Shown here piece by piece: positions 2,321-25,217 of a stretch of 32,000 nucleotides of DNA. How positions within the stretch are numbered: position 1 is the stretch's first letter; each line of letters starts with the position of its first letter. The notes beneath the pieces are model-generated. The model was given only the letters and a program-made list of their open reading frames with translations, made no database searches and was not told the origin of the DNA. The stretch lies in assembly GCF_022354465.1 (NCBI RefSeq), contig NZ_CP092361.1:1982522-2014521 (forward strand), written 5' to 3'. Both the position numbers and the translations under genes were made by a program. The DNA comes from Wielerella bovis (GTDB lineage Bacteria > Pseudomonadota > Gammaproteobacteria > Burkholderiales > Neisseriaceae).

Positions 2321-4567
2321 ATGGGGCAATATAAAAAGTTATGGTACACGTTAATCTGCGTGTTGGCTGTAACCTTTTCCTTACTCGGTTATTTGGGTGT
2401 TGAAGTTTATCGTCAAGCACCACCGTTTCCAGAAAAATTTGTTTCTGCTTCGGGCGCAACGATTATCACCAAAGATGACATCCACAAAGGTCAATCGGCG
2501 TGGCAATCTACGGGTGGTATGGAATTGGGCTCGGTGTTGGGACATGGTGCTTATCAGGCACCTGACTGGACGGCGGATTTCTTACACCGTGAATTGGTGG
2601 CTTGGTTGGATTTAACTGCGCAAGCTGAGCATAGCAAAAAATTTGATGAGCTGGATGTGGCGCAAAAAGCGGCAATCCAAGCGCGTTTGAAACAAGAATA
2701 TCGTGAACAAAGTGCGATGGACGAATCGGGTACGGTTAAATTGTCTGATACGCGCGTGAAAGCGATTGAGCAAACGGCACAATATTACATTGATTTGTAT
2801 GGCGACAAACCTGAATTGGATAAAACGCGCGAATCTTTTGCGATGAAAACCAATACTTTGCCCGATTTGCAAGCGCGTCAGCATTTAACCAAATTCTTTT
2901 TCTGGACAGCTTGGTCGGCATCGGCAAATCGTCCCAATAGTGTGGCGACTTACACCAATAACTGGCCGCATGAGCCTTTGATTGACAATAAGCCAACAAC
3001 TGAAAATTATATGTGGTCGTTTGCGTCTATCGTATTTTTGTTGGCTGGTGTAGGCTTTTTGGTATGGGGTTATCACTTTTTGCGCAAACAAGAAGTTGAA
3101 CCCGAAGTACCTGAATACGACCCATTAGCAAAAATTGTATTAACACCTTCTCAAAAAGCATTGTGGAAATATGCGGCTTTGACCGTTATTTTGTTTATTG
3201 TGCAAATTTTGTTGGGTGGCTTGGTGGCACACTACACCATTGAAGGTCAGCATTTTTATGGTATTGAATTATCTAAAATTCTGCCTTACTCTTTGGCGCG
3301 TACTTGGCACTTGCAATCTGCCTTGTTCTGGATTGCGACAGGTTTCTTAACTGCTGGTTTGTTTATTGCGCCTGTGTTGAATGGTGGTAAAGACCCCAAA
3401 TACCAAGCTTTGGGTGTGAATTTACTGTATGTTGCCTTGTTTATTGTAGTTGCAGGTTCTTATGCAGGTAACTTCACTTCTTTGGTGTTGAATAAACTTT
3501 CAGGCAGCGCTAATTTCTGGTTTGGTCATCAAGGCTATGAATATTTGGATTTGGGTCGTTTTTGGCAATTATTGCTGACTGTGGGTTTCTTGCTGTGGCT
3601 ATTTTTGATGTTACGTTGTGCTATTCCTGCTTTTAAGCAAGGTGGCGACAAAAACTTGTTGGCGATTTTCGTAGCATCTATCGTAGGTGTGGGTGCGTTC
3701 TATGCACCAGGCTTGTTCTATGGCGAACACACGACTTTGGCAGTGATGGAATACTGGCGTTGGTGGGTGGTGCATTTATGGGTAGAAGGCTTCTTTGAAG
3801 TATTTGCCACCGCTGCATTGGCGTTTATTTTCTACAACTTGGGTTTGGTAAGCTACAAATCTGCGACAACCGCATCTTTGGTTGCAGGTAGCCTCTTCTT
3901 GGTAGGCGGCGTTCCAGGAACATTCCACCACTTGTACTTCACAGGCACAACCACACCCGTAATGGCAGCAGGTGCATCATTCTCTGCGCTGGAAGTTGTC
4001 CCCTTGATTTTATTGGGTCATGAAGCTTATGAACATTGGTCTCATCAACACGCTGCACCTTGGATGAAACGTCTGCGCTGGCCTTTAATGTGTTTCGTAG
4101 CTGTAGCATTCTGGAATATGTTGGGTGCAGGTGTCTTTGGTTTCTTGATTAACCCACCGATTAGCCTGTACTACTTGCAAGGTTTGAATACCACCGCTGT
4201 ACACGCGCACGCAGCATTATTTGGCGTATATGGTTTCTTGGCATTAGGTTTTGTATTATTGGTCGGCTGTTACATCAAGCCTGACTTCACATACGATGCC
4301 AAACAAATGACATGGGGTTTTTGGTTGATGAATGCAGGTTTGATTGGCATGATTATTTCCAGCTTATTGCCCATCGGCATTTTCCAAGCCTATGCCTCTA
4401 TCACAGAAGGTTTATGGTATGCACGCAGCGAAGAGTTTATGCAACAAGGTCATTTGGAAATGTTGCGTTGGTTGCGCACAATTGCAGACTTTGTCTTCAT
4501 TGGTGGTGCGTGCTTATTCGCATGGCAAGTGATTCGTATGTCTATTAGTAAAGATAAAGCAGCATAA
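2321..4567 (+). CDS. norB: Quinol-dependent nitric oxide reductase (qNor, single-subunit NorB with N-terminal extension)
   Basis: 748 aa, the length typical of qNor. N-terminal TM helix plus a periplasmic extension, then 12 or more TM helices containing a conserved-histidine haem-copper-oxidase-like core (HHLYF, HAHAALFG). RBS AGGAG. It is divergent from nirK, as in Neisseria. Confidence 0.95.
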   Translation: MGQYKKLWYTLICVLAVTFSLLGYLGVEVYRQAPPFPEKFVSASGATIITKDDIHKGQSAWQSTGGMELGSVLGHGAYQAPDWTADFLHRELVAWLDLTAQAEHSKKFDELDVAQKAAIQARLKQEYREQSAMDESGTVKLSDTRVKAIEQTAQYYIDLYGDKPELDKTRESFAMKTNTLPDLQARQHLTKFFFWTAWSASANRPNSVATYTNNWPHEPLIDNKPTTENYMWSFASIVFLLAGVGFLVWGYHFLRKQEVEPEVPEYDPLAKIVLTPSQKALWKYAALTVILFIVQILLGGLVAHYTIEGQHFYGIELSKILPYSLARTWHLQSALFWIATGFLTAGLFIAPVLNGGKDPKYQALGVNLLYVALFIVVAGSYAGNFTSLVLNKLSGSANFWFGHQGYEYLDLGRFWQLLLTVGFLLWLFLMLRCAIPAFKQGGDKNLLAIFVASIVGVGAFYAPGLFYGEHTTLAVMEYWRWWVVHLWVEGFFEVFATAALAFIFYNLGLVSYKSATTASLVAGSLFLVGGVPGTFHHLYFTGTTTPVMAAGASFSALEVVPLILLGHEAYEHWSHQHAAPWMKRLRWPLMCFVAVAFWNMLGAGVFGFLINPPISLYYLQGLNTTAVHAHAALFGVYGFLALGFVLLVGCYIKPDFTYDAKQMTWGFWLMNAGLIGMIISSLLPIGIFQAYASITEGLWYARSEEFMQQGHLEMLRWLRTIADFVFIGGACLFAWQVIRMSISKDKAA

Positions 4568-4590: not shown

Positions 4591-4697
4591 TATAGTGAAT
4601 TCAATTTAAACCAGTACAGCGTTGCCAGCTCCCTTATGTACTAGGTGTACACAGCGGTCGCTGTCGCCTTATCCTGATTTAAATTGAATCCACTATA
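4591..4697. mobile_element. Correia-like MITE, subfamily A, copy 1 (107 bp)
   Basis: TATAGTGAATTCAATTTAAACCAGTACAGCGTTGCC...GTCGCCTTATCCTGATTTAAATTGAATCCACTATA. It has terminal inverted repeats and TA ends. The internal blocks resemble the Neisseria Correia element (CCAGTACGGCGTTGCC / TCGTCGCCTTGTCCTGATTT...AATCCACTATA). Confidence 0.8.
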
Positions 4698-4796: not shown

Positions 4797-4879
4797 TATA
4801 TCAAAATCATGCAACAATGAGGCAGCAACATCTGCCGTGTATAAGTTGTACATAAGGGTGTTAGCAACGCTGTACCATT
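4797..4879. repeat. Degenerate, truncated MITE remnant in inverse orientation, abutted by MITE copy A2
   Basis: It contains GTACATAAGGG and GCAACGCTGTAC, the reverse complement of the MITE core. One terminus is missing where copy A2 begins. Confidence 0.45.
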
Positions 4880-4986
4880 TATAGTGAATTCAATTTAAAC
4901 CAGTACAGCGTTGCCAGCTCCTTTATGTACTAGGTGTACACGACGGTCGCTGTCGCCTTGTCCTGATTTAAATTGAATCCACTATA
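4880..4986. mobile_element. Correia-like MITE, subfamily A, copy 2 (107 bp)
   Basis: Near-identical to 4591-4697, with a few substitutions. Confidence 0.8.
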
Positions 4987-17389: not shown

Positions 17390-17419
17390 AAATGTGATGT
17401 TTTCAGGCAGCCTGAAACC

Positions 17420-18003
17420 TTATATATTGCCCCCAATTCAAGGGGCAGTCAAAAATTTAAAATCACGGCGAAAGCCCCTTGAATTAACTAATGTTAATTT
17501 TCAAGGGGCTTTTAACATGAAGGAAGTAGGCAAGAGATGAGCAAAATAGACATGAACGTCCGCATAGACAGATTAGTAGAAAGTCAAAACTACCGATTAG
17601 GCTTAATGCTAATAGAGAACGGCAAGATGGGTAAATTTGAAACCTACATTTGTCAAACGCTCGCCGAAGTCTGCGAAAGAATAGCCAAGTTTGAAGCACA
17701 AAATCTAACCCTTATATATTGCCCCCAATTCAAGGGGCAGTCAAAAATTTAAAATCACGGCGAAAGCCCCTTGAATTAACTAATGTTAATTTTCAAGGGG
17801 CTTTTAACATGAAGGAAGTAGGCAAGAGATGAGCAAAATAGACATGAACGTCCGCATAGACAGATTAGTAGAAAGTCAAAACTACCGATTAGGCTTAATG
17901 CTAATAGAGAACGGCAAGATGGGTAAATTTGAAACCTACATTTGTCAAACGCTCGCCGAAGTCTGCGAAAGAATAGCCAAGTTTGAAGCACAAAATCTAA
18001 CCC
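17420..18003 (+). repeat. Perfect tandem duplication of a 292-bp unit (17420-17711 and 17712-18003)
   Basis: Base-by-base comparison of the two units shows no mismatch. The junction has CC(C)T microhomology. Confidence 0.9.
17537..17752 (+). pseudogene. Truncated duplicate of the small phage gene at 17829..18083
   Basis: The first 59 aa are identical to the downstream copy. It then reads across the duplication junction (..QNLTLIYCPQFKGQSKI*). Confidence 0.5.
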
Positions 18004-18083
18004 TATTTGAAAACGCCATAGATTACCAAAAAACCGACTGGCGAGAGTTAGCAAGACAAAACAAAGCGAAAAAGGCAGCCTGA
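17829..18083 (+). CDS. Hypothetical small phage protein (84 aa)
   Basis: ORF with an upstream GAAGGAAG RBS region, on the same strand as the phage genes. I recognise no family. Confidence 0.5.
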   Translation: MSKIDMNVRIDRLVESQNYRLGLMLIENGKMGKFETYICQTLAEVCERIAKFEAQNLTLFENAIDYQKTDWRELARQNKAKKAA

Positions 18084-18305
18084 AAATGAAAGATGTTCAA
18101 ACCACACAATTAGCCAAACAAGGCAGCATCGCGCAAGGCGGTGGCTGGGGCAGCGCAAGCGACACTTGCCAACGCCAGCGCGATGCAAGCCCCCCTAGGC
18201 TAATAGGGGGGGAACAAACAAAAATCCCTAAATAGCCATACAGGGGAACAAATAAAAAAATTTACTTAAATTCAAACAAACCAAGTTATCAAGGGAACTT
18301 AAAAA

Positions 18306-19749
18306 ATGACCACTCTAGATTTCCAAAACTACGAATACTTCACCCACGCCGTAACCGTAGGCGGAAAAATCCTAGAAGTTCCCTTACGCAAAGGACAAAA
18401 AGACAGCGCATTCATAGACGCACTCACATTCACAATCAAGAAACAAACCATAGACATCAACAAAGGACTGTGCATCACAGATTTAGAGTATGTCGCCGCG
18501 TATAGCGAAATCCTACAAGACATTTTCGGTTTCGGCGTAAGCGAAAAAGCAGGTAAAGGACGTTATTTCTACAACGCATTCTACCGACTCGGCACCAAAG
18601 AAACCGAATATGGGACACTTCACATCGGCGGACAAAGAGAAACCATCTTAATTGAATTAACAGGTATAGTCGTAGAAGTGAAAAAGCAGTACAAGGCGAC
18701 AACGTCCGCCGTGTGTGAAAACACATCAGGACGTTGGCAACGCTGTAATGATTTTTCAATTCTGCGACTATACAGGCTGCCAAGCAGCAAAACCAGGTTG
18801 GGAACAAAGACTATACCAATTCCTAACCCAAGCCGTCCGTCCAAGAATTACACGCATAGACTGCGCTCATGACTTCTTCAATGGCGAATACAGCCCAGAA
18901 CAAGCCATGTTAGACCACAACAAAGGTTTATTCAACCGTGCAAACAAACGCCCAAAAAGCGAATGCAAAGGCACCGCCTGGCGAGAAGAAGACTACACAG
19001 GCAAAACATTCTACATCGGGAGACGTGGCAGTTCCAAACTCGTCCGCGTTTACGAAAAAGGCAGACAACTAGGCGACAAAGACAGCCAATGGACACGCTT
19101 TGAAATAGAGTTCAGAAACAAAGACTGCGTTATTCCACTAGAAATTCTAACCGCACCAGGCGAATTTCTCACAGGAGCCTACCCAGTCGGAGAAACCCTG
19201 TTTACAACAACAGCCCAATCCATAGAAGCAGCGACCGAAAAAGTGAACATCACTTTTGACAGCAAACTAGCCCACGCCAAAAACCAAGTCGGGCGCATGG
19301 TCCGCTTCCTAAATGATATTGGCTGGACACCCGAACAAATCATAGAAGCCCTAATTGGCGAAGAAGACAAATACCCAAAAGGCTTAAACCCAGAAGAATA
19401 CGACTGCGACAAAGCTCAAGTTCACTATCTCACAACAGAAGACATTGACTACACCGAATTGCCAACAGACGAACTAGACGAAGTCATCAAAATAGAAACC
19501 GCCATCAGAATCTTTGACCAAGACACCCAATTAAAAACCGATTGGCAAAAACAACTGATAGCCGAATTTCCAGACGACTTCAAACGCTGGCTAGACATCT
19601 GGAAACAGCAGCAATACTACGGCATTAACCACCATTTACGCGAAGCCGAAAATTTAAGAAGAGAACAAGAAAGCCATCTTGACTATCTCTATTCCAAATA
19701 CGGCACATTTTTTCCAACCCAAACTAAAAGGACAACATCATGTCATTAA
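18306..19749 (+). pseudogene. Filamentous-phage replication initiation protein (Rep_trans family) interrupted by a MITE
   Basis: Two overlapping ORFs (18306..18872 and 18715..19749) sit in different frames. Deleting 106 bp (18667-18772) joins them in frame to give ...LIELTGTGCQAAKPGWEQ..., about 445 aa. Rep_trans-like motifs: RIDCAHDF, FYIGRRGSSKLVRVYEKG, WTRFEIEFR. Confidence 0.85.
18665..18772. mobile_element. Correia-like MITE, subfamily B, copy 1, inserted in the phage rep gene
   Basis: TATAGTCGTAGAAG...CTGCGACTATA, 108 bp including the duplicated TA. It differs at only 2 positions from the reverse complement of 30754-30861. Confidence 0.88.
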
Positions 19750-20069
19750 ATTTTAACGAACAAACCCCACTCATCTACCAAAAGAAAATTGTCATGGGCG
19801 TATCCCGCTTCAAAGGCGAAGTAGATAAAAACCAAATTGACAACTGCAACGTCTTAATCGCAGCCCCATTGAGCAGCGACAAAGATAACGCGAAAGGCTT
19901 TGGCGTAGCCAAAGTCCCCTTTGGCAAAAGCGACAACTTCAACAAATTTCTCGGTGTAACGTTCCCCTGCGAAATGGAGTTAGCCTTCGTTACAGAAACC
20001 AACGCATCAGGCAAACAACGCGAAGTTCTGAAAGACATTCGCCTGATTGCTCCACCAGCAAAAGGATAA
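19740..20069 (+). CDS. Hypothetical phage protein. Its position suggests the ssDNA-binding (gV-like) protein.
   Basis: 109 aa. Its start overlaps the rep stop (ATGTCATTAA), which implies translational coupling. The functional guess rests on synteny only. Confidence 0.5.
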   Translation: MSLNFNEQTPLIYQKKIVMGVSRFKGEVDKNQIDNCNVLIAAPLSSDKDNAKGFGVAKVPFGKSDNFNKFLGVTFPCEMELAFVTETNASGKQREVLKDIRLIAPPAKG

Positions 20070-20073
20070 CCCT

Positions 20074-20262
20074 ATGCAAATCAAATACATCGTGCAGGAT
20101 TTGGAAACGTGCGAATTCCTGTATCCCTCGCCCGATGGCGATGTAGGGCAAACGCCCTACATAAAACAGGCAGGGCATTTTGAAGAAATGCAAGATGCCC
20201 TAGATGCAGGGGAAGATTTAGGCGCACCCTTTACCATTTTTACTTTTTACCTACCTAAATAG
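20074..20262 (+). CDS. Hypothetical small acidic phage protein (62 aa)
   Basis: ATG at 20074 preceded by AAAGGA. I prefer this start to the track start at 20047, which overlaps the previous gene. Confidence 0.45.
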   Translation: MQIKYIVQDLETCEFLYPSPDGDVGQTPYIKQAGHFEEMQDALDAGEDLGAPFTIFTFYLPK

Positions 20263-20338
20263 GCAGCCTGAAAAGCAAAAAGCAAATTCAGCCCAAATCA
20301 AATTCAATCCAAAACCCAAACCCAATTTACTGCGTGCC

Positions 20339-20390
20339 GGGCGGTTGCGCAGATAAACCCCTTGATAACCGCCCATTTTCCATTTTTTTA
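20339..20390 (+). terminator. Hairpin plus T-run between the replication module and the coat gene
   Basis: GGGCGGTT (20339-20346) pairs with AACCGCCC (20367-20374), followed by ATTTTCCATTTTTTT. Confidence 0.45.
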
Positions 20391-20414
20391 ACTTAATTTT
20401 TAAGGAGTTCAATC

Positions 20415-20630
20415 ATGAACATCAAACAAAAAATGACTCGTGTAGCAGTCGTATCCACAGCAGCATTGGCAACCGCAAGCGCACAAGCTGGCACAATCGC
20501 AGATGCAGTAACTCAAGGCACAACAGGCTTGGTTGAAGACTTGGGGGCAACAGGCGCGATTGTAATCGGCATTGTCGTAGTCGGCGTTGGCATCGGCGCA
20601 GCAATCCGTATGTTACGCAAAGGCGGTTAA
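20415..20630 (+). CDS. Inovirus major coat protein (gVIII-like)
   Basis: 71 aa. Signal peptide ending AQA. Acidic mature N-terminus, a Gly/Ala/Val/Ile-rich TM helix, and a basic C-terminus (RMLRKGG). Strong AAGGAG RBS. Confidence 0.78.
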   Translation: MNIKQKMTRVAVVSTAALATASAQAGTIADAVTQGTTGLVEDLGATGAIVIGIVVVGVGIGAAIRMLRKGG

Positions 20631-20647
20631 TCTTAAGGAGCTACCAT

Positions 20648-20959
20648 ATGAAAGGTTATAGAGTAGGCGGTCAATGCTTCGCCACTTCGGAGGAAGCGTC
20701 CAATTACAAAATGAGTATGGTAGTTCCGACCATTACGGCGGACGGGGAATTAAAAACCCCCGTCTACCAAAATGGTAACTGGTATTACGGCACTCAAAAA
20801 ATAGTTCTCACATTTCCAGAATGCGACCCAAAAGAATCTTTTATAGAAGGTTTACAAGTTGGGACTATGTTAATCGGACTATTTTTACTTACTTTCGGCA
20901 TTAAAACGGCAATAAGAATGCTGTATGCAATCAATCAAGACACAAATAGCGAGTGTTAA
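20648..20959 (+). CDS. Hypothetical phage membrane protein (103 aa, C-terminal TM helix)
   Basis: AAGGAG RBS, and the gene is tightly packed after the coat gene. Confidence 0.55.
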   Translation: MKGYRVGGQCFATSEEASNYKMSMVVPTITADGELKTPVYQNGNWYYGTQKIVLTFPECDPKESFIEGLQVGTMLIGLFLLTFGIKTAIRMLYAINQDTNSEC

Positions 20960-20961
20960 AA

Positions 20962-21468
20962 ATGGAGACAGGTAAACCCAAACCAGGCATGGAAATGATA
21001 GGCGGTGGTGGTTCAAGTGGTGGTGGTTCAAGTGGTGGCGGTTCAAGCGGAGCGAAAACTCAAACAGTAGTAGGTCAAGCCATTCAAAAATCCACAGAAG
21101 GATTAAACACCGATTTATATGTTGTTTCAGGAATTTTAATTCTCATAACCGTGATAATTGTTGGTGTAGCAGCAGTCATCAAAATGATGAGAGAAGCCGA
21201 AATGGGAGAACTGCGTATAGACATGACCGATGAACAATTTGCCGATGAAATGTTTAGCTATCAAGACGGAGAAGAACATAGCCATTTTACCGATGAATTT
21301 GTTCAAGACTTCTTTGATGAAACAAACGAGCATACCGCTAGCACCTTTGCGAGCGAAATGTTTACAGATGAGCCACCAGATGACCCGATAGACCAATTTG
21401 TAACAGACATGTTTACAGAAACTGACACAACAGAAAGCGAATTGGAGTCACAAGATGAGAAAGGATAA
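20962..21468 (+). CDS. Hypothetical phage membrane protein with a Gly/Ser-rich N-terminus, one TM helix and an acidic repeat tail
   Basis: METGKPKPG..GGGGSSGGGSSGGGSSG.. is followed by LYVVSGILILITVIIVGVAAVI. The tail carries repeated DEMF/DEFV/SEMF/TDMF motifs. The ATG at 20962 is 3 nt after the previous stop. Confidence 0.55.
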   Translation: METGKPKPGMEMIGGGGSSGGGSSGGGSSGAKTQTVVGQAIQKSTEGLNTDLYVVSGILILITVIIVGVAAVIKMMREAEMGELRIDMTDEQFADEMFSYQDGEEHSHFTDEFVQDFFDETNEHTASTFASEMFTDEPPDDPIDQFVTDMFTETDTTESELESQDEKG

Positions 21469-21470
21469 AA

Positions 21471-21539
21471 ATGAACGACACAATCATGTTTTTACTCGGG
21501 CTGCTGTTCACAGCACCGTTTTTACTCTTATTTTTTTAA
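21471..21539 (+). CDS. Possible 22-aa hydrophobic peptide (gVII/gIX-like small virion protein)
   Basis: AAAGGATAAAAATG, then MNDTIMFLLGLLFTAPFLLLFF*. It is too short for the ORF track. The call rests on position and hydrophobicity only. Confidence 0.3.
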   Translation: MNDTIMFLLGLLFTAPFLLLFF

Positions 21540-21561
21540 TGGGCTGGATATGGCAACAATA

Positions 21562-21585
21562 AAAGGCAGCCTGAAAGCTGCCTTT
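21562..21585. terminator. Bidirectional hairpin between convergent genes
   Basis: AAAGGCAGC-CTGAAA-GCTGCCTTT, a 9-bp stem that contains a DUS. Confidence 0.55.
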
Positions 21586-21589
21586 GTGA

Positions 21590-21874
21590 TTATTCTTGCT
21601 GAATTTTGATTTTTTGATATTGAATTTTTAAAGCATTAACTGCCGTTAATAGTGCAGCATCAAACAGATGTGGATTATCTAAAATGGGTTGAAGTTGTTC
21701 CATGCTTGCCATAACACCTAAATAAACAGGTTTATTGGTTTGCATTTCTTCAAAGGTCATTTTGTCTATTTCAATGTGTGTTGAGCAGCTGAGAATTCCT
21801 AAATTTTCTTTAAAAGTGCCACTCCATAAATTCACACTTGGGCTGTATGTGAAATCTTTAATGTCGTAATCCAT
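21590..21874 (-). CDS. Opposite-strand cargo (moron) gene inside the prophage; 94-aa hypothetical cytoplasmic protein
   Basis: The ATG at 21874 (MDYDIKDFTYSP...) has a GGAG RBS 8 nt upstream, so I prefer it to the track start at 21955. It is the only minus-strand ORF in the phage with an RBS, and it is AT-rich. Confidence 0.55.
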   Translation of the reverse strand: MDYDIKDFTYSPSVNLWSGTFKENLGILSCSTHIEIDKMTFEEMQTNKPVYLGVMASMEQLQPILDNPHLFDAALLTAVNALKIQYQKIKIQQE

Positions 21875-21905
21875 TTGTTTATCTCCGTGAAAGTTGAAAT
21901 ATATC

Positions 21906-23561
21906 ATGAAGCTTTTTCGTATTTTAATTCCTTTTTTTCTTTTTGTATCACTCAATTCTTTTGCTGATACTGCCTATATCCCACCTAATACTCCACAAGC
22001 TGTTATTACTCGTACTGCTAATGGAAATCCTATTCATGTTAAAACTCCTATTAGGGGCGGTGCCACATATTCTGGGAGTCTTGATAGTGGTCTTACAATT
22101 AATGTTCCAAATAAACAATTCAACAGCGTAAAAGCCCAAAACGGCAACGTAACCGCCACCAAAACCCACCCCGCCACCTTTACCGATTCGCACGGCGCAA
22201 AAGCAACAGGCACCGTCAACACCCAAACCAATGTAGGCAAAATGAGCAATTTAAGCAAAGGCTTTGCCACCTACGCAGGTGTAAGTATCGCTGGTGCAGT
22301 CGTCAACAGTCCTCACGCTCAACAAGCAGCTCAATCACTCGGGCAAGGAGACTACGGAAAAGCAGCTGCTCACGCAACAGCAGCATTTGATTTCTCTGGT
22401 CTCGGCTCTGGTCTTTATGGTTTATTTGACATTTTCCAAAACGCCAGGGCAGGCAAAGAAATGGGAAAAGCCGTTCAAAATGCAGCTGCACAAAAAGCCC
22501 AAGCTGCTGCTCAACAGGCAGAACAACAGCGTAAAAACAATGAAGATTTTAATAAATACCTTCCAAACCCGGCAACAGGTAAACCAGCAGTTTACCCTAA
22601 ATTATTAATAACGGAGGGCTATTATGGAGGTCATGTCAAAATTCTTCCTCATGATTCTAATATTGGTCAAGGCGGTACAAAAAGTGGACATTTTTTTCAA
22701 GAAATTAACTGGGGGTTCGGGGATTGGAATTGTTACAGCCGTAGCTGCTATCCTCCTTCTGGTACAACTTGGCATTCCGTTCAAGTAACGGAGAAAAACT
22801 ACGACCAGTATAAAGATGCTATAGCTCAAGCCATTAATTCATCGCCTAACACCTTAACTCTGGAAGATTTCCTGTTAAATCAGCAAGAAATTATGGCAAT
22901 TATTGCAGATTATTTGGACAAGAATCTCGCCCAAAATCAAGCCTTAACAGAAGCCATCACCAACATGATGTGGCAGTTAGGCGCGGGAAACGGCGGTATT
23001 GGCGCAGAAAATACACAAACTACAATAGTAGGCAGCCAAGCTGACAACACCTTCGTCTCTCCCCCCTACACACCTGCTGGAAGCAACCAAGCTCAACAAA
23101 CTCAATTTGTTGTAAACCAAGACGGAAGTGTAACCACATCAACGATACCACGTCCAGACTTAAATGCACATACCAGTCAAGCACCAACACGACATCCGAT
23201 AGGACAAAACACTTCATCAACACAATCACAGACAGAAACGCCTAAAAGCCAATCAACAGCTTCTGCACCTGATATTTGTGCGATGAATCCTAACTCTTTG
23301 ATGTGTAGCCCTTTGGGCAACATGGACTACGAAGACATAAAGCTACCGACAAATACGGTCAATATCAGCTTAAACCCTTTAAATATTTTTCAAACAACAG
23401 GCGTATGCCCACCACCAGAAGAGTTAAATTTATTGGGAAACCGCTTCTTATTCAGCTATCAGCCAATGTGTGATGGTGCGTTGAAATTGAGACCATGGTT
23501 GATTTTTCTTGCCATGATTTTATCGTTTTTAATTGTGAAAGATTCAATAGAAAGGCAATAA
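21906..23561 (+). CDS. Putative adsorption / minor coat protein (gIII-like; analogous in position to Neisseria TspB)
   Basis: 551 aa. Signal peptide MKLFRILIPFFLFVSLNSFA. Ala/Gln-rich and Ser/Thr/Gln-rich low-complexity linkers. Cys-containing C-terminal region and a C-terminal hydrophobic anchor (WLIFLAMILSFLIV). It is the largest ORF upstream of the pVI-like and Zot genes. Confidence 0.62.
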   Translation: MKLFRILIPFFLFVSLNSFADTAYIPPNTPQAVITRTANGNPIHVKTPIRGGATYSGSLDSGLTINVPNKQFNSVKAQNGNVTATKTHPATFTDSHGAKATGTVNTQTNVGKMSNLSKGFATYAGVSIAGAVVNSPHAQQAAQSLGQGDYGKAAAHATAAFDFSGLGSGLYGLFDIFQNARAGKEMGKAVQNAAAQKAQAAAQQAEQQRKNNEDFNKYLPNPATGKPAVYPKLLITEGYYGGHVKILPHDSNIGQGGTKSGHFFQEINWGFGDWNCYSRSCYPPSGTTWHSVQVTEKNYDQYKDAIAQAINSSPNTLTLEDFLLNQQEIMAIIADYLDKNLAQNQALTEAITNMMWQLGAGNGGIGAENTQTTIVGSQADNTFVSPPYTPAGSNQAQQTQFVVNQDGSVTTSTIPRPDLNAHTSQAPTRHPIGQNTSSTQSQTETPKSQSTASAPDICAMNPNSLMCSPLGNMDYEDIKLPTNTVNISLNPLNIFQTTGVCPPPEELNLLGNRFLFSYQPMCDGALKLRPWLIFLAMILSFLIVKDSIERQ

Positions 23562-23563
23562 AA

Positions 23564-23851
23564 ATGAAAGGTTCTATCGGTTTATTACTCACATCGGTTT
23601 TTACCACGCTAGCCGGCAAAATCATGGCTGCTCTAGGCTTGAGCATCATAACCTACACAGGTGTAACCGCGTTGCAACAACAAATGATTTCCCGTATTTC
23701 CAGCGGATTAGATGACATTCCATCAGCTTCATTACAAATCTTCTATTTAGCTGGCGGCGGTGTCGCTTTAAACTGGTTAATGTCTGCCATTTCCTTTTCA
23801 TTGGGATTCAAAGCAGTTTCTAAACTAGGGACAGTATTCTCAAATAAATAA
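23564..23851 (+). CDS. Small phage membrane protein (gVI-like position)
   Basis: 95 aa from the ATG at 23564, which is 3 nt after the previous stop. Two to three hydrophobic segments. Confidence 0.55.
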   Translation: MKGSIGLLLTSVFTTLAGKIMAALGLSIITYTGVTALQQQMISRISSGLDDIPSASLQIFYLAGGGVALNWLMSAISFSLGFKAVSKLGTVFSNK

Positions 23852-23902
23852 TTAATAAACAATGATTTATTAATTAAATTGAATTATATTTAAGGGGTTA
23901 AT

Positions 23903-25054
23903 ATGATTAGTTTAATAACAGGTATGCCAGGCATGGGCAAAACCAGTTTAATGGTTTCTATGTTGCTCAATCGCAAGGATTTAAAAACACGCCCTTTGTA
24001 TGTAGAAGGTATTCCAGATTTAAAATTGCCACACGAAGAAATTCCCGAAGGTCATTCAATGGAAGATTGGCATGTTTGGGCACCTACTGGCGCGATTTTA
24101 GTGATTGATGAAGCACAAAGAATTTTCCGTCCGCGTTCTGCTGGCGCAAAAGTACCTGAACATGTTCAAGCGTTGGAAACTCATAGACACAAGGGTGTTG
24201 ATATTTTTATTCTTACACAGCATCCACGTTTATTAGATGTAAATGTTCGCTCTCTCGTTGGTGAGCATCGCAATATCAGCAACACCCTTCTTGGTGTTCG
24301 CCGTGTCAGCTACTGGGCGCGCTGCGCCAATCCTGAAAGCAAAACAGATATTTCTGAAGCAAAAAACAGCGTCTTCCGTCTTCATAAAGATGCGTTTGGT
24401 TTGTATAAATCTGCTGAAGAACACAATAAAATTTCAGGTAAACGAACCATGTGGATTTATATTATTCCAATCGCAATAATTTTCAGTATATTCATGATTT
24501 TACATATGATAAACCGCTATAATCAGCGATTTGGAACAGATAAAAATCAAACAAATCAAACAACGATAACGCAACAACATCAAATAGCATCACAAGCACA
24601 AATGCAGCCTGATAGTGTGCCTGTTGGTCAGTATTCAGGCAATGCACACAATATGAGTGTATCTGAACCTACTCAACCACAAAGGCAGCCAATTAAAGTT
24701 GAAGACTTTAAGCCTGATATTGAAGGCAGACCGTGGACAGCACCGATTTATGATAATTTTAATCGTAATTATCAGACGATGCCTTACCCAGTTATGTGTG
24801 TTAAATCATCTAAAAAATGTACTTGCTATACGGACCAAGCGACACCCATTAGAGATATGGATAAAGGTTTATGTATGGATTTTGCTGAAAACGGCATTTA
24901 CAATCCATATTTGAAAAACGAATATCAAGATGTTCAGCCAAGTGAAACCGTTGGGCAACCAGTTCAATCGACTGCGCAAATATCCGAACTTGGCGGCGAG
25001 CCACTTCCATCACTCAGCCCCGCCAATTCAAGTCATTTGAAAGTGATTCAGTAA
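23903..25054 (+). CDS. Zot-like / gI-type filamentous phage assembly ATPase
   Basis: 383 aa. N-terminal Walker A motif GMPGMGKTS and Walker B-like motif LVIDEAQ. Central TM helix (MWIYIIPIAIIFSIFMILHMI), followed by a periplasmic C-terminal domain. Confidence 0.85.
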   Translation: MISLITGMPGMGKTSLMVSMLLNRKDLKTRPLYVEGIPDLKLPHEEIPEGHSMEDWHVWAPTGAILVIDEAQRIFRPRSAGAKVPEHVQALETHRHKGVDIFILTQHPRLLDVNVRSLVGEHRNISNTLLGVRRVSYWARCANPESKTDISEAKNSVFRLHKDAFGLYKSAEEHNKISGKRTMWIYIIPIAIIFSIFMILHMINRYNQRFGTDKNQTNQTTITQQHQIASQAQMQPDSVPVGQYSGNAHNMSVSEPTQPQRQPIKVEDFKPDIEGRPWTAPIYDNFNRNYQTMPYPVMCVKSSKKCTCYTDQATPIRDMDKGLCMDFAENGIYNPYLKNEYQDVQPSETVGQPVQSTAQISELGGEPLPSLSPANSSHLKVIQ

Positions 25055-25064
25055 CTTCATTATA

Positions 25065-25125
25065 GGTGCGATTTTTGTAAATGTTACTATGCCCCAAGCA
25101 TAGTAACGTTTGCAAAAATCGTACC
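25065..25125 (+). other. 28-bp-stem hairpin in the non-coding region upstream of the recombinase gene
   Basis: GGTGCGATTTTTGTAAATGTTACTATGC-cccaa-GCATAGTAACGTTTGCAAAAATCGTACC. The only three imperfect positions are G-T (G-U) pairs when read on the plus strand. Confidence 0.7.
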
Positions 25126-25165
25126 CACCAACCGTAGGGCGGTAGTCGTTGAATTTCACAAACAT

Positions 25166-25217
25166 AAACCAAAAACCCTAAACCATTTCTACGGAGCTGG
25201 TTTAGAGATTTTGGTTT
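25166..25217 (+). other. Second imperfect 20-bp-stem hairpin in the same leader
   Basis: AAACCAAAAACCCTAAACCA-N12-TGGTTTAGAGATTTTGGTTT, with 2 mismatches. Confidence 0.6.

Follow-up and report, generated by a model that had tools for sequence, protein, structure and literature searches.

The Correia elements (CREE/NEMIS) of Neisseria meningitidis, N. gonorrhoeae and N. lactamica are noncoding repeats with TATAGT ends, present in many copies per genome, that duplicate a TA target upon insertion. They fall into two size classes, 104-108 bp and 153-157 bp (PMC9778887; the TA duplication and size class are also described in PMC2229807), and their nearly palindromic sequence folds into a long RNA hairpin that is cleaved by RNase III. 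Gene disruption by Correia elements and their occurrence in prophage regions are known (PMC2649163), and a 2016 review calls them unique to Neisseria (PMC5039591). The literature classes these elements as IS630-derived; it has identified no transposase whose ends match theirs, and IS630 does not figure in IS surveys of the pathogenic species. A comparable pair has been described in Streptococcus pneumoniae, where RUP, a MITE of about 107 bp, is proposed to be mobilised in trans by IS630-Spn1 and often lands in, and inactivates, other mobile elements (PMC2229807). The filamentous prophages Nf1-Nf4 of Neisseria, including MDA, form the third relevant system: they are about 8-9 kb long, carry genes for Rep_trans, TspB-like and Zot-like proteins and a terminal IS110-family recombinase in that order, integrate in association with dRS3 repeats at a CT-containing core, and are known to include Rep-less or truncated copies (PMC7058167).

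Here we describe a locus at which counterparts of these systems meet. The window, that is, the whole stretch of DNA analysed, comprises 32,000 nucleotides of Wielerella bovis, a cattle bacterium of the Neisseriaceae. Of ten proteins encoded in it, seven are identical to W. bovis proteins, and for six of these the match is in the source strain (chromosome of 2,294,361 bp). Comparative sequence evidence makes it highly probable that a Correia-superfamily MITE split the Rep_trans gene of an integrated Nf/MDA-type phage after the strains diverged, with loss of Rep function. The prophage and its surroundings contain the following features:

17415-17706 and 17707-17998, plus strand: perfect tandem duplication (100% identical) in which the prophage left end repeats its initial 292 bp
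about 17422-26579, plus strand: Nf/MDA-type filamentous (inovirus) prophage, recognised from its domains, a related phage contig and an empty attB
18306-18666, plus strand: 5' part of the Rep_trans initiator gene, codons 1-120 and the first base of codon 121, with the N-terminal 120 amino acids collinear with intact homologues
18665-18772, plus strand: Correia-superfamily MITE of subfamily 'B', 108 bp with both TAs, the inserted DNA being 106 bp
18773-19749, plus strand: 3' part of the Rep gene, codons 121-445, with Pfam Rep_trans at residues 145-314 of the restored protein
20415-20630, plus strand: major coat protein gene of the prophage
21894-23561, plus strand: TspB-like protein gene of the prophage
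23495-23851, plus strand: DUF2523 protein gene of the prophage
23903-25054, plus strand: Zot-like assembly ATPase gene of the prophage
25370-26383, plus strand: IS110-family recombinase gene of the prophage
26611-26704, no strand assigned: inverted dRS3-type repeat pair (REPIN-like), lying 29 bp beyond the right end of the prophage

The gene order of the prophage (small ORFs, split Rep, a 109-aa ORF, coat, TspB-like, DUF2523, Zot-like, IS110-family recombinase) follows that of the Nf phages, in which the position of the 109-aa ORF is occupied by the ssDNA-binding gene, and TspB, DUF2523, Zot and IS110 domains were all detected in its proteins. Contig L002 (9,067 bp), whose ends overlap by 19 nt, represents a related phage with the same gene set and an intact Rep. 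Compared with it, the rest of the prophage looks intact, every gene other than Rep appearing undamaged. Another W. bovis strain, CP092360, has an empty attB (...GAAACCTT|TGCAAAAC...), which places the filamentous phage, about 8.8 kb long, just downstream of parE and beside the dRS3-type repeat; integration was presumably performed by the phage's own IS110-family recombinase. The 21-mer ATTCCCGCGCAGGCGGGAATC within the dRS3-type pair is the sequence reported as the main REP sequence of N. meningitidis. As in the Nf/MDA group, dRS3 repeats accompany the integration site and the core contains CT. Unlike in that group, the crossover takes place outside the dRS3 pair, at a CTT core 29 bp to its left, the Rep protein shares no more than about 48-55% identity with the Neisseria proteins, the host belongs to another genus, and Rep was lost by MITE insertion, not by deletion. 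At the left end, the junction of the tandem duplication joins the phage end to an internal site, AACCCT|ATTTGAAAAC, that resembles the attB, AACCTT|TGCAAAAC.

The inserted element begins with TATAGTCGTAGAAG and ends with TTCTGCGACTATA, and has terminal inverted repeats at about 18665-18696 and 18741-18772. The first-pass annotation had placed a 108-bp element within the Rep gene, and all its coordinates proved right: the TA target duplication occupies 18665-18666 and 18771-18772, and the filled site differs from the empty one by exactly 106 extra bp with a TA on each side. The element has no coding capacity. Only one other match to it exists within the window, on the minus strand at 30754-30861, whereas 100 shuffles gave none; the two copies differ at 2 of 108 positions (18686, G/A; 18727, C/A). 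More than 100 related copies were collected across other genomes and metagenomes, with no match in metagenome contigs to the exact 30-nt core of the window's MITE. A scan of the whole window at Rfam gathering thresholds matched no family.

Rep is now represented by an ORF of 188 aa (18306-18872), which contains the 5' part of the gene and runs through the MITE to a stop at 18872, and by one of 344 aa (18715-19749). Excising 106 bp, the element and one TA, joins the two into a protein of 445 aa reading ...LIELTG|TGCQAAKPGW... at the junction, as the first-pass annotation had proposed. The restored protein matches Pfam Rep_trans (PF02486) at 7e-36, with 124 bits against a curated cutoff of 29.6, and phrog_453 'replication initiation protein' at 1e-81; the Rep_trans match (residues 145-314) lies downstream of the junction, and the phrog_453 match (residues 28-334) crosses it unbroken. 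When 15 homologues drawn from Wielerella, Kingella, Neisseria and Snodgrassella are aligned, no gap falls at the junction, C123, which adjoins it, is invariant, and invariant residues are frequent among the N-terminal 120 aa. Conservation of the ELTG|TGC motif extends as far as a solved plasmid Rep structure, PDB 4cij, which aligns with residues 105-246 straight across it. Among 579 Rep relatives from viral contigs, the 80 best all read through this point without a break, and no other interrupted Rep gene was seen among these 80. Intact Rep proteins therefore contain no segment equivalent to the insertion, and both the alignment and the empty-site allele put the junction exactly at the TA, so that the outcome which the first-pass annotation had named as refuting its reading did not occur.

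Insertion of the 106-bp non-autonomous MITE at the TA in codons 120-121, with duplication of the TA, shifts the reading frame and breaks Rep in the conserved ELTG|TGC motif of the catalytic domain. The source genome is annotated accordingly with a Rep fragment of 297 aa (ULJ70413). This is the strain's only member of the Rep cluster at 90% identity, in which three other strains have the 445-aa form; an exact-protein look-up of the 188-aa Rep fragment and of ParE gave no match. A frame shift and a cut inside a motif kept even in 4cij would leave no Rep-driven start of rolling-circle replication, and the prophage can probably no longer replicate its own DNA in this way. The earlier suggestion that it is replication-defective is thus well supported by sequence comparison, and the MITE insertion explains why the prophage is probably grounded. 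A distant Rep elsewhere in the genome could serve as helper, the cluster examined being one of 90% identity only. Knockouts of prophage genes by MITEs are familiar mutations; what is new here is the host and the subfamily.

The second copy of the element has the following setting:

30754-30861, minus strand: second MITE copy, 106/108 identical, in a 185-aa membrane-protein gene (30272-30935) adjoining queC

It lies 12 kb from the first and in the opposite orientation. Taking 106 bp out of the membrane-protein gene yields a 185-aa ORF that is identical at 184 of 185 positions to the intact protein of CP092360, and the site is empty in two other strains. This copy has a TA on both sides, whereas the empty allele of the other strains reads CA; a TA target at this site therefore requires a synonymous TGC/TGT difference.

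When did the insertions occur? The uninterrupted Rep allele sought by the first-pass annotation is present in W. bovis CP092357.1, where an intact 445-aa Rep, 97% identical, is encoded across an empty site reading TTAACAGG-TA-CAGGCTGCC, with a single TA and exactly 106 bp fewer. In strains whose Rep is intact, among them CP092357 and CP092358, the phage occupies other loci. CP092360 and CP092358 have an empty site at the position of each MITE, and the prophage is missing from its present locus in two other W. bovis strains. Since both MITE insertions and the prophage are missing at the same loci in other strains, these events post-date strain divergence, and the strain-specific insertion of both copies into coding sequence indicates that mobility is recent. 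The claim of recent mobilisation is thereby borne out, albeit on other grounds than the one first given: the difference at 2 of 108 positions cannot carry the main weight, since copies of this MITE family in one genome typically share such identity (98% here, against medians of 96-97% in two other genomes). In the simplest reading, the MITE would have inserted while the phage was integrated.

How close is this element to the Correia family? The two share the TA duplication, the TATAGT ends, a noncoding sequence in many copies per genome, a length within the 104-108-bp class, a homologous core, GTACAAGGCGAC...GGCAACGC(C/T)GTA, and a near-palindrome that folds into a long RNA hairpin, predicted here at -54.4 kcal/mol (z = -9.25). 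The ends, however, are distinct. Four variants of the 26-bp Correia terminal inverted repeat have been published, and searches for them admit at most 3 mismatches; the repeats of the window MITE fall outside all four, having in common with them only TATAGT and an inner ...CAG(G/T)ACAAGG. Over 28 nt, its terminal repeat TATAGTCGTAGAAGTGAAAAAG and the closest published variant, TATAGTGGATTAA..., are separated by 7 mismatches and a 2-nt indel. Sister elements in the window (4591-4697 and others) are much nearer to the published repeats, with right ends matching at about 27/29 by eye. Over its length, the window MITE shares 66% identity with a classical 107-bp Correia element taken from IMG/VR; against the classical 107-bp copy, W. 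bovis subfamily A from the same window reaches 80% and the same-end-type Rappaport copies 79%. IMG/VR copies were used for this comparison, as the N. gonorrhoeae locus searched for a classical copy contained none. Sequence identity thus shows the window MITE to be homologous to Correia elements, yet markedly diverged from them. Chimeric copies with one end of each type were seen at two loci (L027, L067).

The host range differs from that of CREE/NEMIS as reviewed, the host here being Wielerella, and the same type of terminal repeat occurs in Alysiella and in Rappaport israeli. The latter is placed in the Cardiobacteriaceae by NCBI, and the Neisseriaceae uptake sequence was absent from 154 kb of its DNA. 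A search of the W. bovis representative genome did not turn up the exact end pattern of the window MITE, and this subfamily may therefore be rare in the species. Elements of Correia type, so far treated as Neisseria-specific, thus have homologues with another type of end that are strain-polymorphic in another genus.

The first-pass annotation had further proposed that the downstream Rep fragment and the late genes could be transcribed from an outward promoter in the MITE. The analysis did not support this: a consensus promoter/terminator scan of 18000-20500 found no sigma-70-like site anywhere on the plus strand, the MITE and its flanks included, and the best hexamer pairs near its right end are weak by eye. 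As far as a consensus scan can tell, the window MITE differs in this from classical Correia elements, which can bear outward promoters (the Black and Snyder promoters).

Could the interruption have another meaning? The MITE might act as a reversible switch, its precise excision restoring Rep and phage production in a subpopulation. Such a switch would fit the perfect ORF obtained upon removal of exactly 106 bp, a prophage that otherwise looks intact compared with L002, and the presence of a candidate transposase in the same genome. We nevertheless hold it to be very unlikely: excision by IS630/Tc1-mariner elements usually leaves the original sequence unrestored, no excised allele was seen at the locus, the strains with an intact Rep carry the phage elsewhere, and the prophage is missing from this locus in the compared strains. 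We would give just as little credence to a split Rep that still works, either as two polypeptides or through a MITE-promoted C-terminal fragment analogous to the gene X product of Ff phages. The Rep_trans domain (145-314) does lie wholly in the 3' fragment, NCBI annotates that fragment at 297 aa, and classical Correia elements can bear outward promoters; but the N-terminal 120 residues are rich in invariant positions, the 4cij match starts at residue 105 and spans the break, the scan found no plus-strand sigma-70-like site in or beside the MITE, and 0/80 of the best viral-contig relatives (of 579) are split.

The density of DNA uptake sequences in the genome (GCAGCCTGAA occurs 46 times in 32 kb) and the related prophages at other loci in other strains raise the question of whether the interrupted allele was imported by natural transformation and recombination from a MITE-bearing copy of the prophage. 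This would alter only the place of transposition and not its nature, and it appears improbable: none of the collections searched contains another MITE-bearing Rep, and a near-identical copy 12 kb away fits local transposition better. That assembly or sequencing produced the 108-bp segment as an artefact, or that it belongs naturally to this Rep as an intron-like or recoding segment, has a negligible probability. No evidence in favour of it was found, while a second copy sits in an unrelated gene with the same TA flanks, more than 100 related copies exist in other genomes and metagenomes, homologues lack such a segment, and Rfam gives no match. MITE transposition into the Rep gene of the integrated prophage remains our preferred explanation.

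What moved the element? A search for a transposase acting at TA targets, as suggested in the first-pass annotation, yielded a candidate, a co-resident, multi-copy IS630-family element of 0.9 kb, whose reference copy is:

L089, 18866-19761: IS630-family element, 896 bp, flanked by TA, its DD35E triad intact and its two ORFs meeting at an A8 run

The source strain has copies (ULJ70429, ULJ70369), as do all other W. bovis strains, and IS630 relatives from three other sources align without gaps. The ends of the IS match those of the MITE at 20-22/32 positions, against a poorer 11-17/32 for the other Correia-like subfamilies of the source genome. Beyond the common TATAG, the match is 17/27, a value reached by 35 of 100,000 shuffles. 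The resemblance is moderate rather than close, being confined to about 30 nt at the ends with 63-69% identity. A further association was seen at L214, where the transposase gene of an IS630-group IS (end TATAGTCAAGGAAT...) harbours a MITE (end TATAGTCAAAGAAT...), about 380 bp separating the two. Sampled loci of Alysiella crassa and Rappaport israeli yielded no IS630 relative, though both organisms are rich in the MITE, and tblastn with the IS630 transposase against the window and the fetched loci returned only degenerate relatives besides L089, L092 and L093. End pairs 1.35 kb apart in the metagenome contigs L095 and L124 were considered as a possible autonomous element with MITE-type ends and rejected, as they are two separate MITEs on either side of an ordinary periplasmic-protein gene.

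We put at about even chances that the MITE was moved in trans by a transposase from the co-resident IS630-family element. The parallel with RUP and IS630-Spn1 is apparent in the size of the MITE, in the TA duplication and in ends that resemble those of a co-resident IS630-family element, and in both systems the link between MITE and IS is known from end similarity only. The two differ in that they have no sequence relationship, and the IS in W. bovis belongs to a compact subgroup, 0.9 kb long, whose two ORFs meet at an A8 run. Like RUP, the MITE is found here inside other mobile elements, copies having entered the phage Rep gene, IS630 transposase genes and a primase-like gene of a prophage.

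More tentatively, W. bovis may harbour an active pair, a compact IS630-family IS and the Correia-superfamily MITEs that it moves, and this IS might represent the long-missing type of Correia transposase, lost by the pathogenic Neisseria; we consider this broader proposal rather doubtful on the present sequence comparisons. If it were true, these MITEs might also be recurrent inactivators of replication or transposition genes carried by other mobile elements, the inovirus Rep, the prophage primase-like gene and the IS630 transposase genes being examples. The IS630 transposase with similar ends is in any case a testable candidate mover of Correia-type repeats. Correia homologues extend to an organism assigned by NCBI to a different bacterial family, and in W. 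bovis they share the genome with the similar-ended IS630 element; polymorphic homologues outside Neisseria together with such an element therefore provide an experimentally tractable system for the movement of Correia-type repeats. The IS630 subgroup itself was found in Neisseriaceae, Cardiobacteriaceae, Pasteurellaceae and Moraxellaceae of animal mucosa.

The Rep_trans replication-initiator gene (Rep) of the filamentous prophage is interrupted by a MITE, assigned here to a 'subfamily B', as follows:

18306-18872, + strand: ORF 5' of the break, 188 aa
18665-18772, + strand: subfamily-B MITE, 108 bp, TATAGTCGTAGAAG...TTCTGCGACTATA
18715-19749, + strand: ORF 3' of the break, 344 aa

Taking out 106 bp (the element plus one TA) leaves a single 445-aa ORF reading ...LIELTG/TGCQAAKPGW... 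across the junction. The first-pass annotation had described this split, and all of its coordinates proved correct when sequence, ORFs and repeats were searched again. The first 32 nt of the MITE have a single other match in the window (30830-30861, minus strand), against 0 of 100 shuffled controls, and a repeat finder pairs both full copies as a 110-nt inverted repeat (98%); between the copies at 18665-18772 and 30754-30861 there are two mismatches, at 18686 and 18727. The predicted RNA of the copy in Rep is one long hairpin (-54.4 kcal/mol, z = -9.25).

Comparison with other strains, which the first-pass annotation had proposed, yielded the uninterrupted allele. In W. bovis CP092357.1 the intact DNA reads TTAACAGG-TA-CAGGCTGCC; in the window this sequence carries 106 additional bases and a second TA, which places the junction exactly at the TA. 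A 90%-identity protein cluster records the intact 445-aa Rep for three other W. bovis strains and a 297-aa fragment alone for the source strain; our look-up for other Rep copies covered this cluster, and a Rep more distant than 90% identity could act as a helper. In a large protein collection, a W. bovis protein of 445 aa is 97% identical to the restored Rep over its full length, and many full-length relatives occur in Kingella, Neisseria, Eikenella and Snodgrassella. The restored protein matches Pfam Rep_trans (PF02486) at residues 145-314 (124 bits for a cutoff of 29.6, E = 7e-36) and PHROG 453, 'replication initiation protein', at residues 28-334 (E = 1e-81), the latter unbroken over the junction. 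A 15-sequence alignment is ungapped there, with E-L-T-G-T-G-C-x-A-A conserved and C123 invariant. No equivalent in-frame segment occurs in this alignment, nor in the best 80 of the 579 relatives of Rep from viral contigs, all contiguous at the break point; with the junction exactly at the TA, both conditions that the first-pass annotation had named as refuting fail. The empty-site allele and the homologues thus bear out the insertion and the 445-aa ORF restored by the 106-bp removal: the finding is real and its original core interpretation right.

The sole solved structure matched to Rep at E below 0.001, 4cij_A (deposited as 'GST REP'), pairs with residues 105-246 without a break, IELTGTGC corresponding to VEMTGQGC, so that the interruption falls within a folded catalytic domain and not in a linker. 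From this position we infer that Rep function was lost. It had also been proposed that the MITE could serve as a promoter for the downstream Rep fragment and the late genes. A consensus scan of the + strand from 18000 to 20500 found no sigma-70-like site, which leaves this idea unsupported, and no terminator-like site.

Domain searches identify the genes around Rep as a Neisseria Nf/MDA-type filamentous phage set:

109-aa ORF in the ssDNA-binding position
71-aa coat protein
TspB-like protein
DUF2523 protein
Zot-like ATPase
IS110-family recombinase, the terminal gene

The same gene set, circularly permuted and including an intact 445-aa Rep, is present on L002 (9,067 bp, contig from a public sequencing run), the two ends of which overlap by 19 nt; gene lengths agree with those of the prophage, Rep excepted. 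Comparison with this contig and with strain CP092360, which is prophage-free at the locus (as is CP092358), places the prophage at about 17422-26579 and gives the attachment sites:

attB: ...GAAACCTT/TGCAAAAC...
attP: ...ATCATCTT/ATATATTG...

Several features lie at or near the prophage ends. The first 292 bp are perfectly duplicated in tandem (17415-17998), and at its junction the exact phage left end (TTATATATTGCCCC) meets a site internal to the phage, AACCCT/ATTTGAAAAC, similar to attB AACCTT/TGCAAAAC. The arrangement points less to replication slippage than to a second recombinase-mediated integration, at a pseudo-attB, after which the long repeat collapsed. In L002 (6330-6359), a circular or tandem phage contig, the joined phage ends form a near-consensus promoter, TTGACA-18-TATATT (11/12). 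Its halves lie in the window at 26560-26582 (-35, right end) and 17419-17430 (-10, left end); integration separates them by 9 kb, so that excision may be needed before this promoter can drive Rep and the other genes downstream of the left end. An inverted dRS3-type pair (26611-26704), 29 bp outside the right end, includes, without mismatch, the 21-mer ATTCCCGCGCAGGCGGGAATC that has been reported as the chief REP/REPIN sequence of N. meningitidis. Directly upstream of Rep, a 49-aa ORF (18086-18235) contains PPRLIGGEQ, a motif that the Rep alignment also places in N-terminal extensions of annotated Neisseria Rep proteins; this segment varies in length among related phages (L002 and the CP092357.1 Rep locus). 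Of ten chromosomal proteins of the window, seven match W. bovis proteins exactly, and six of these are recorded for one strain, with a chromosome of 2,294,361 bp (ULJ69004-ULJ69027). The window holds 46 copies of the DNA uptake sequence GCAGCCTGAA, which we take to be the Kingella-type dialect of the Neisseriaceae.

The MITE resembles Correia elements in its TA duplication, its ends starting with TATAGT, its size class (104-108 bp) and its absence of coding capacity. We took classical Correia copies from viral contigs by means of published end sequences and compared them with the W. bovis elements.

Identity of W. bovis elements to a classical 107-bp Correia copy
MITE in Rep (subfamily B): 66%
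Subfamily A (4591-4697, 4880-4986, 27612-27718): 80%
Third type (30033-30138): 70%

The core of subfamily B is homologous to that of Correia elements, whereas its ends are of another type over roughly their outermost 20 nt, with seven mismatches and a 2-nt indel against the closest published Correia repeat. On these grounds we treat the MITE in Rep as a diverged subfamily of the Correia superfamily and not as a classical Correia element. Subfamily-A ends are very close to published Neisseria repeats; with a partial copy at 4817-4875, the window has five copies of the two other subfamilies.

A 2016 review describes Correia elements as unique to Neisseria (PMC5039591). Scanning one genome per species, we found many copies with the subfamily-B end type in Alysiella crassa and Rappaport israeli, and a few in an Alysiella MAG and 'Neisseriaceae bacterium B1'. 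Rappaport is placed by NCBI in the Cardiobacteriaceae and showed no Neisseriaceae uptake sequence in the 154 kb sampled, yet the core of its copies is almost identical to the classical Neisseria core, which suggests transfer between families. R. israeli B08008 (L005-L080) has dozens of such 108-bp copies. Two small contigs of 'Brevundimonas vesicularis NCTC11166' (L003, L051) bear the Rappaport-type element and look like contamination. Two further loci (L027, L067) are chimeras, subfamily B at the left end and subfamily A at the right; the core of L027 hardly differs from that of the MITE in Rep.

Recent mobilisation had been argued from the 2/108 difference between the window copies. Presence and absence among strains supports it, but the difference alone says little because pairwise identity within a genome is typically high.

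Identity among copies within genomes
Alysiella crassa, 24 copies: median pairwise 96.3%
Rappaport israeli, 24 copies: median pairwise 97.2%
The two window copies: 98.1%

The copy at 30754-30861 (minus strand) interrupts a gene for a 185-aa predicted membrane protein (30272-30935) adjoining queC, and taking out 106 bp gives a protein 184/185 identical to that of CP092360. This site is empty in CP092360 and CP092358, where it reads ATG-CA-GCA and not TA, against TA...TA in the window; a synonymous TGC/TGT difference would be the source of the TA. Correia insertions at CA have already been noted in the literature. The three strains compared also vary in their Correia-like copies near 30030: the one at 30033-30138 is missing in both others, and CP092360 has a subfamily-A copy at another TA a few bases away.

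The suggested search for a TA-targeting transposase brought up a plausible candidate. An 896-bp IS630-family element in CP092360.1 (L089, 18866-19761), 3 kb past the region common with the window, has TA flanks, HTH_Tnp_IS630 and DDE_3 domains, and an intact D...D-35-E (DD35E) triad, its two ORFs being joined at an A8 run. It is flanked by another IS, present as two inverted copies. The same transposase occurs in multiple copies in all W. bovis strains, the source strain among them (ULJ70429, ULJ70369).

First 31 nt of the IS and MITE ends
IS end 1: TATAGGTGTAGAATTAAATAAACGGTACACA
IS end 2: TATAGATAAAGAAATTAAAATTCGGTACACA
MITE end 1: TATAGTCGTAGAAGTGAAAAAGCAGTACAAG
MITE end 2: TATAGTCGCAGAATTGAAAAATCATTACAGC

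The match to the MITE in Rep is moderate and confined to the ends (20-22 of 32 positions, ungapped); past the common TATAG, 17 of 27 positions agree, a level reached in 35 of 100,000 shuffles. The agreement is poorer for subfamily A and classical Correia ends. The same register holds for the ends of related IS copies in Ursidibacter (L092), in a public run (L093) and on a metagenome contig (L214). On L214, whose IS has its nearest proteins in Suttonella (Cardiobacteriaceae), some 380 bp separate the IS end TATAGTCAAGGAAT... from the end of a subfamily-B MITE, TATAGTCAAAGAAT..., and that MITE (3293-3400) sits within this IS's own transposase gene. Across 124 subfamily-B copies, the base preceding the TA tends to be A/C and the one following it G/T, a symmetric preference of the kind known for IS630. 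No such IS630 element was found in the sampled Alysiella and Rappaport DNA, which, like the limited end match and the poorer fit of the other Correia-type ends, counts against the link. The derivation of Correia elements from IS630 has been published (PMC2817692), but the literature names no partner IS with matching ends, and IS censuses of pathogenic Neisseria include no IS630 member; the W. bovis element is thus a concrete candidate mobiliser of the MITE.

Inactivation of Rep by a MITE is in itself an ordinary class of event, gene-inactivating Correia insertions having been reported, including copies in prophage regions (PMC2649163). What is noteworthy is the host, which is not Neisseria, the distinct end type and the IS630 candidate in the same genome. 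A subfamily-B MITE also splits a large gene in a predicted prophage (L094, 2203-2310; IMG/VR UViG 2786546893) with the same flanks as a Rappaport israeli locus (L063). Taking out 106 bp restores one long ORF. The portion of the gene beyond the MITE has FIAGDND, by eye a Toprim/primase-like sequence. This is the second instance of such a MITE disabling an apparent mobile-element replication gene. On another metagenome contig (L150, 12099-12205), a MITE with subfamily-B ends around a different core lies in an IS630-family transposase gene.
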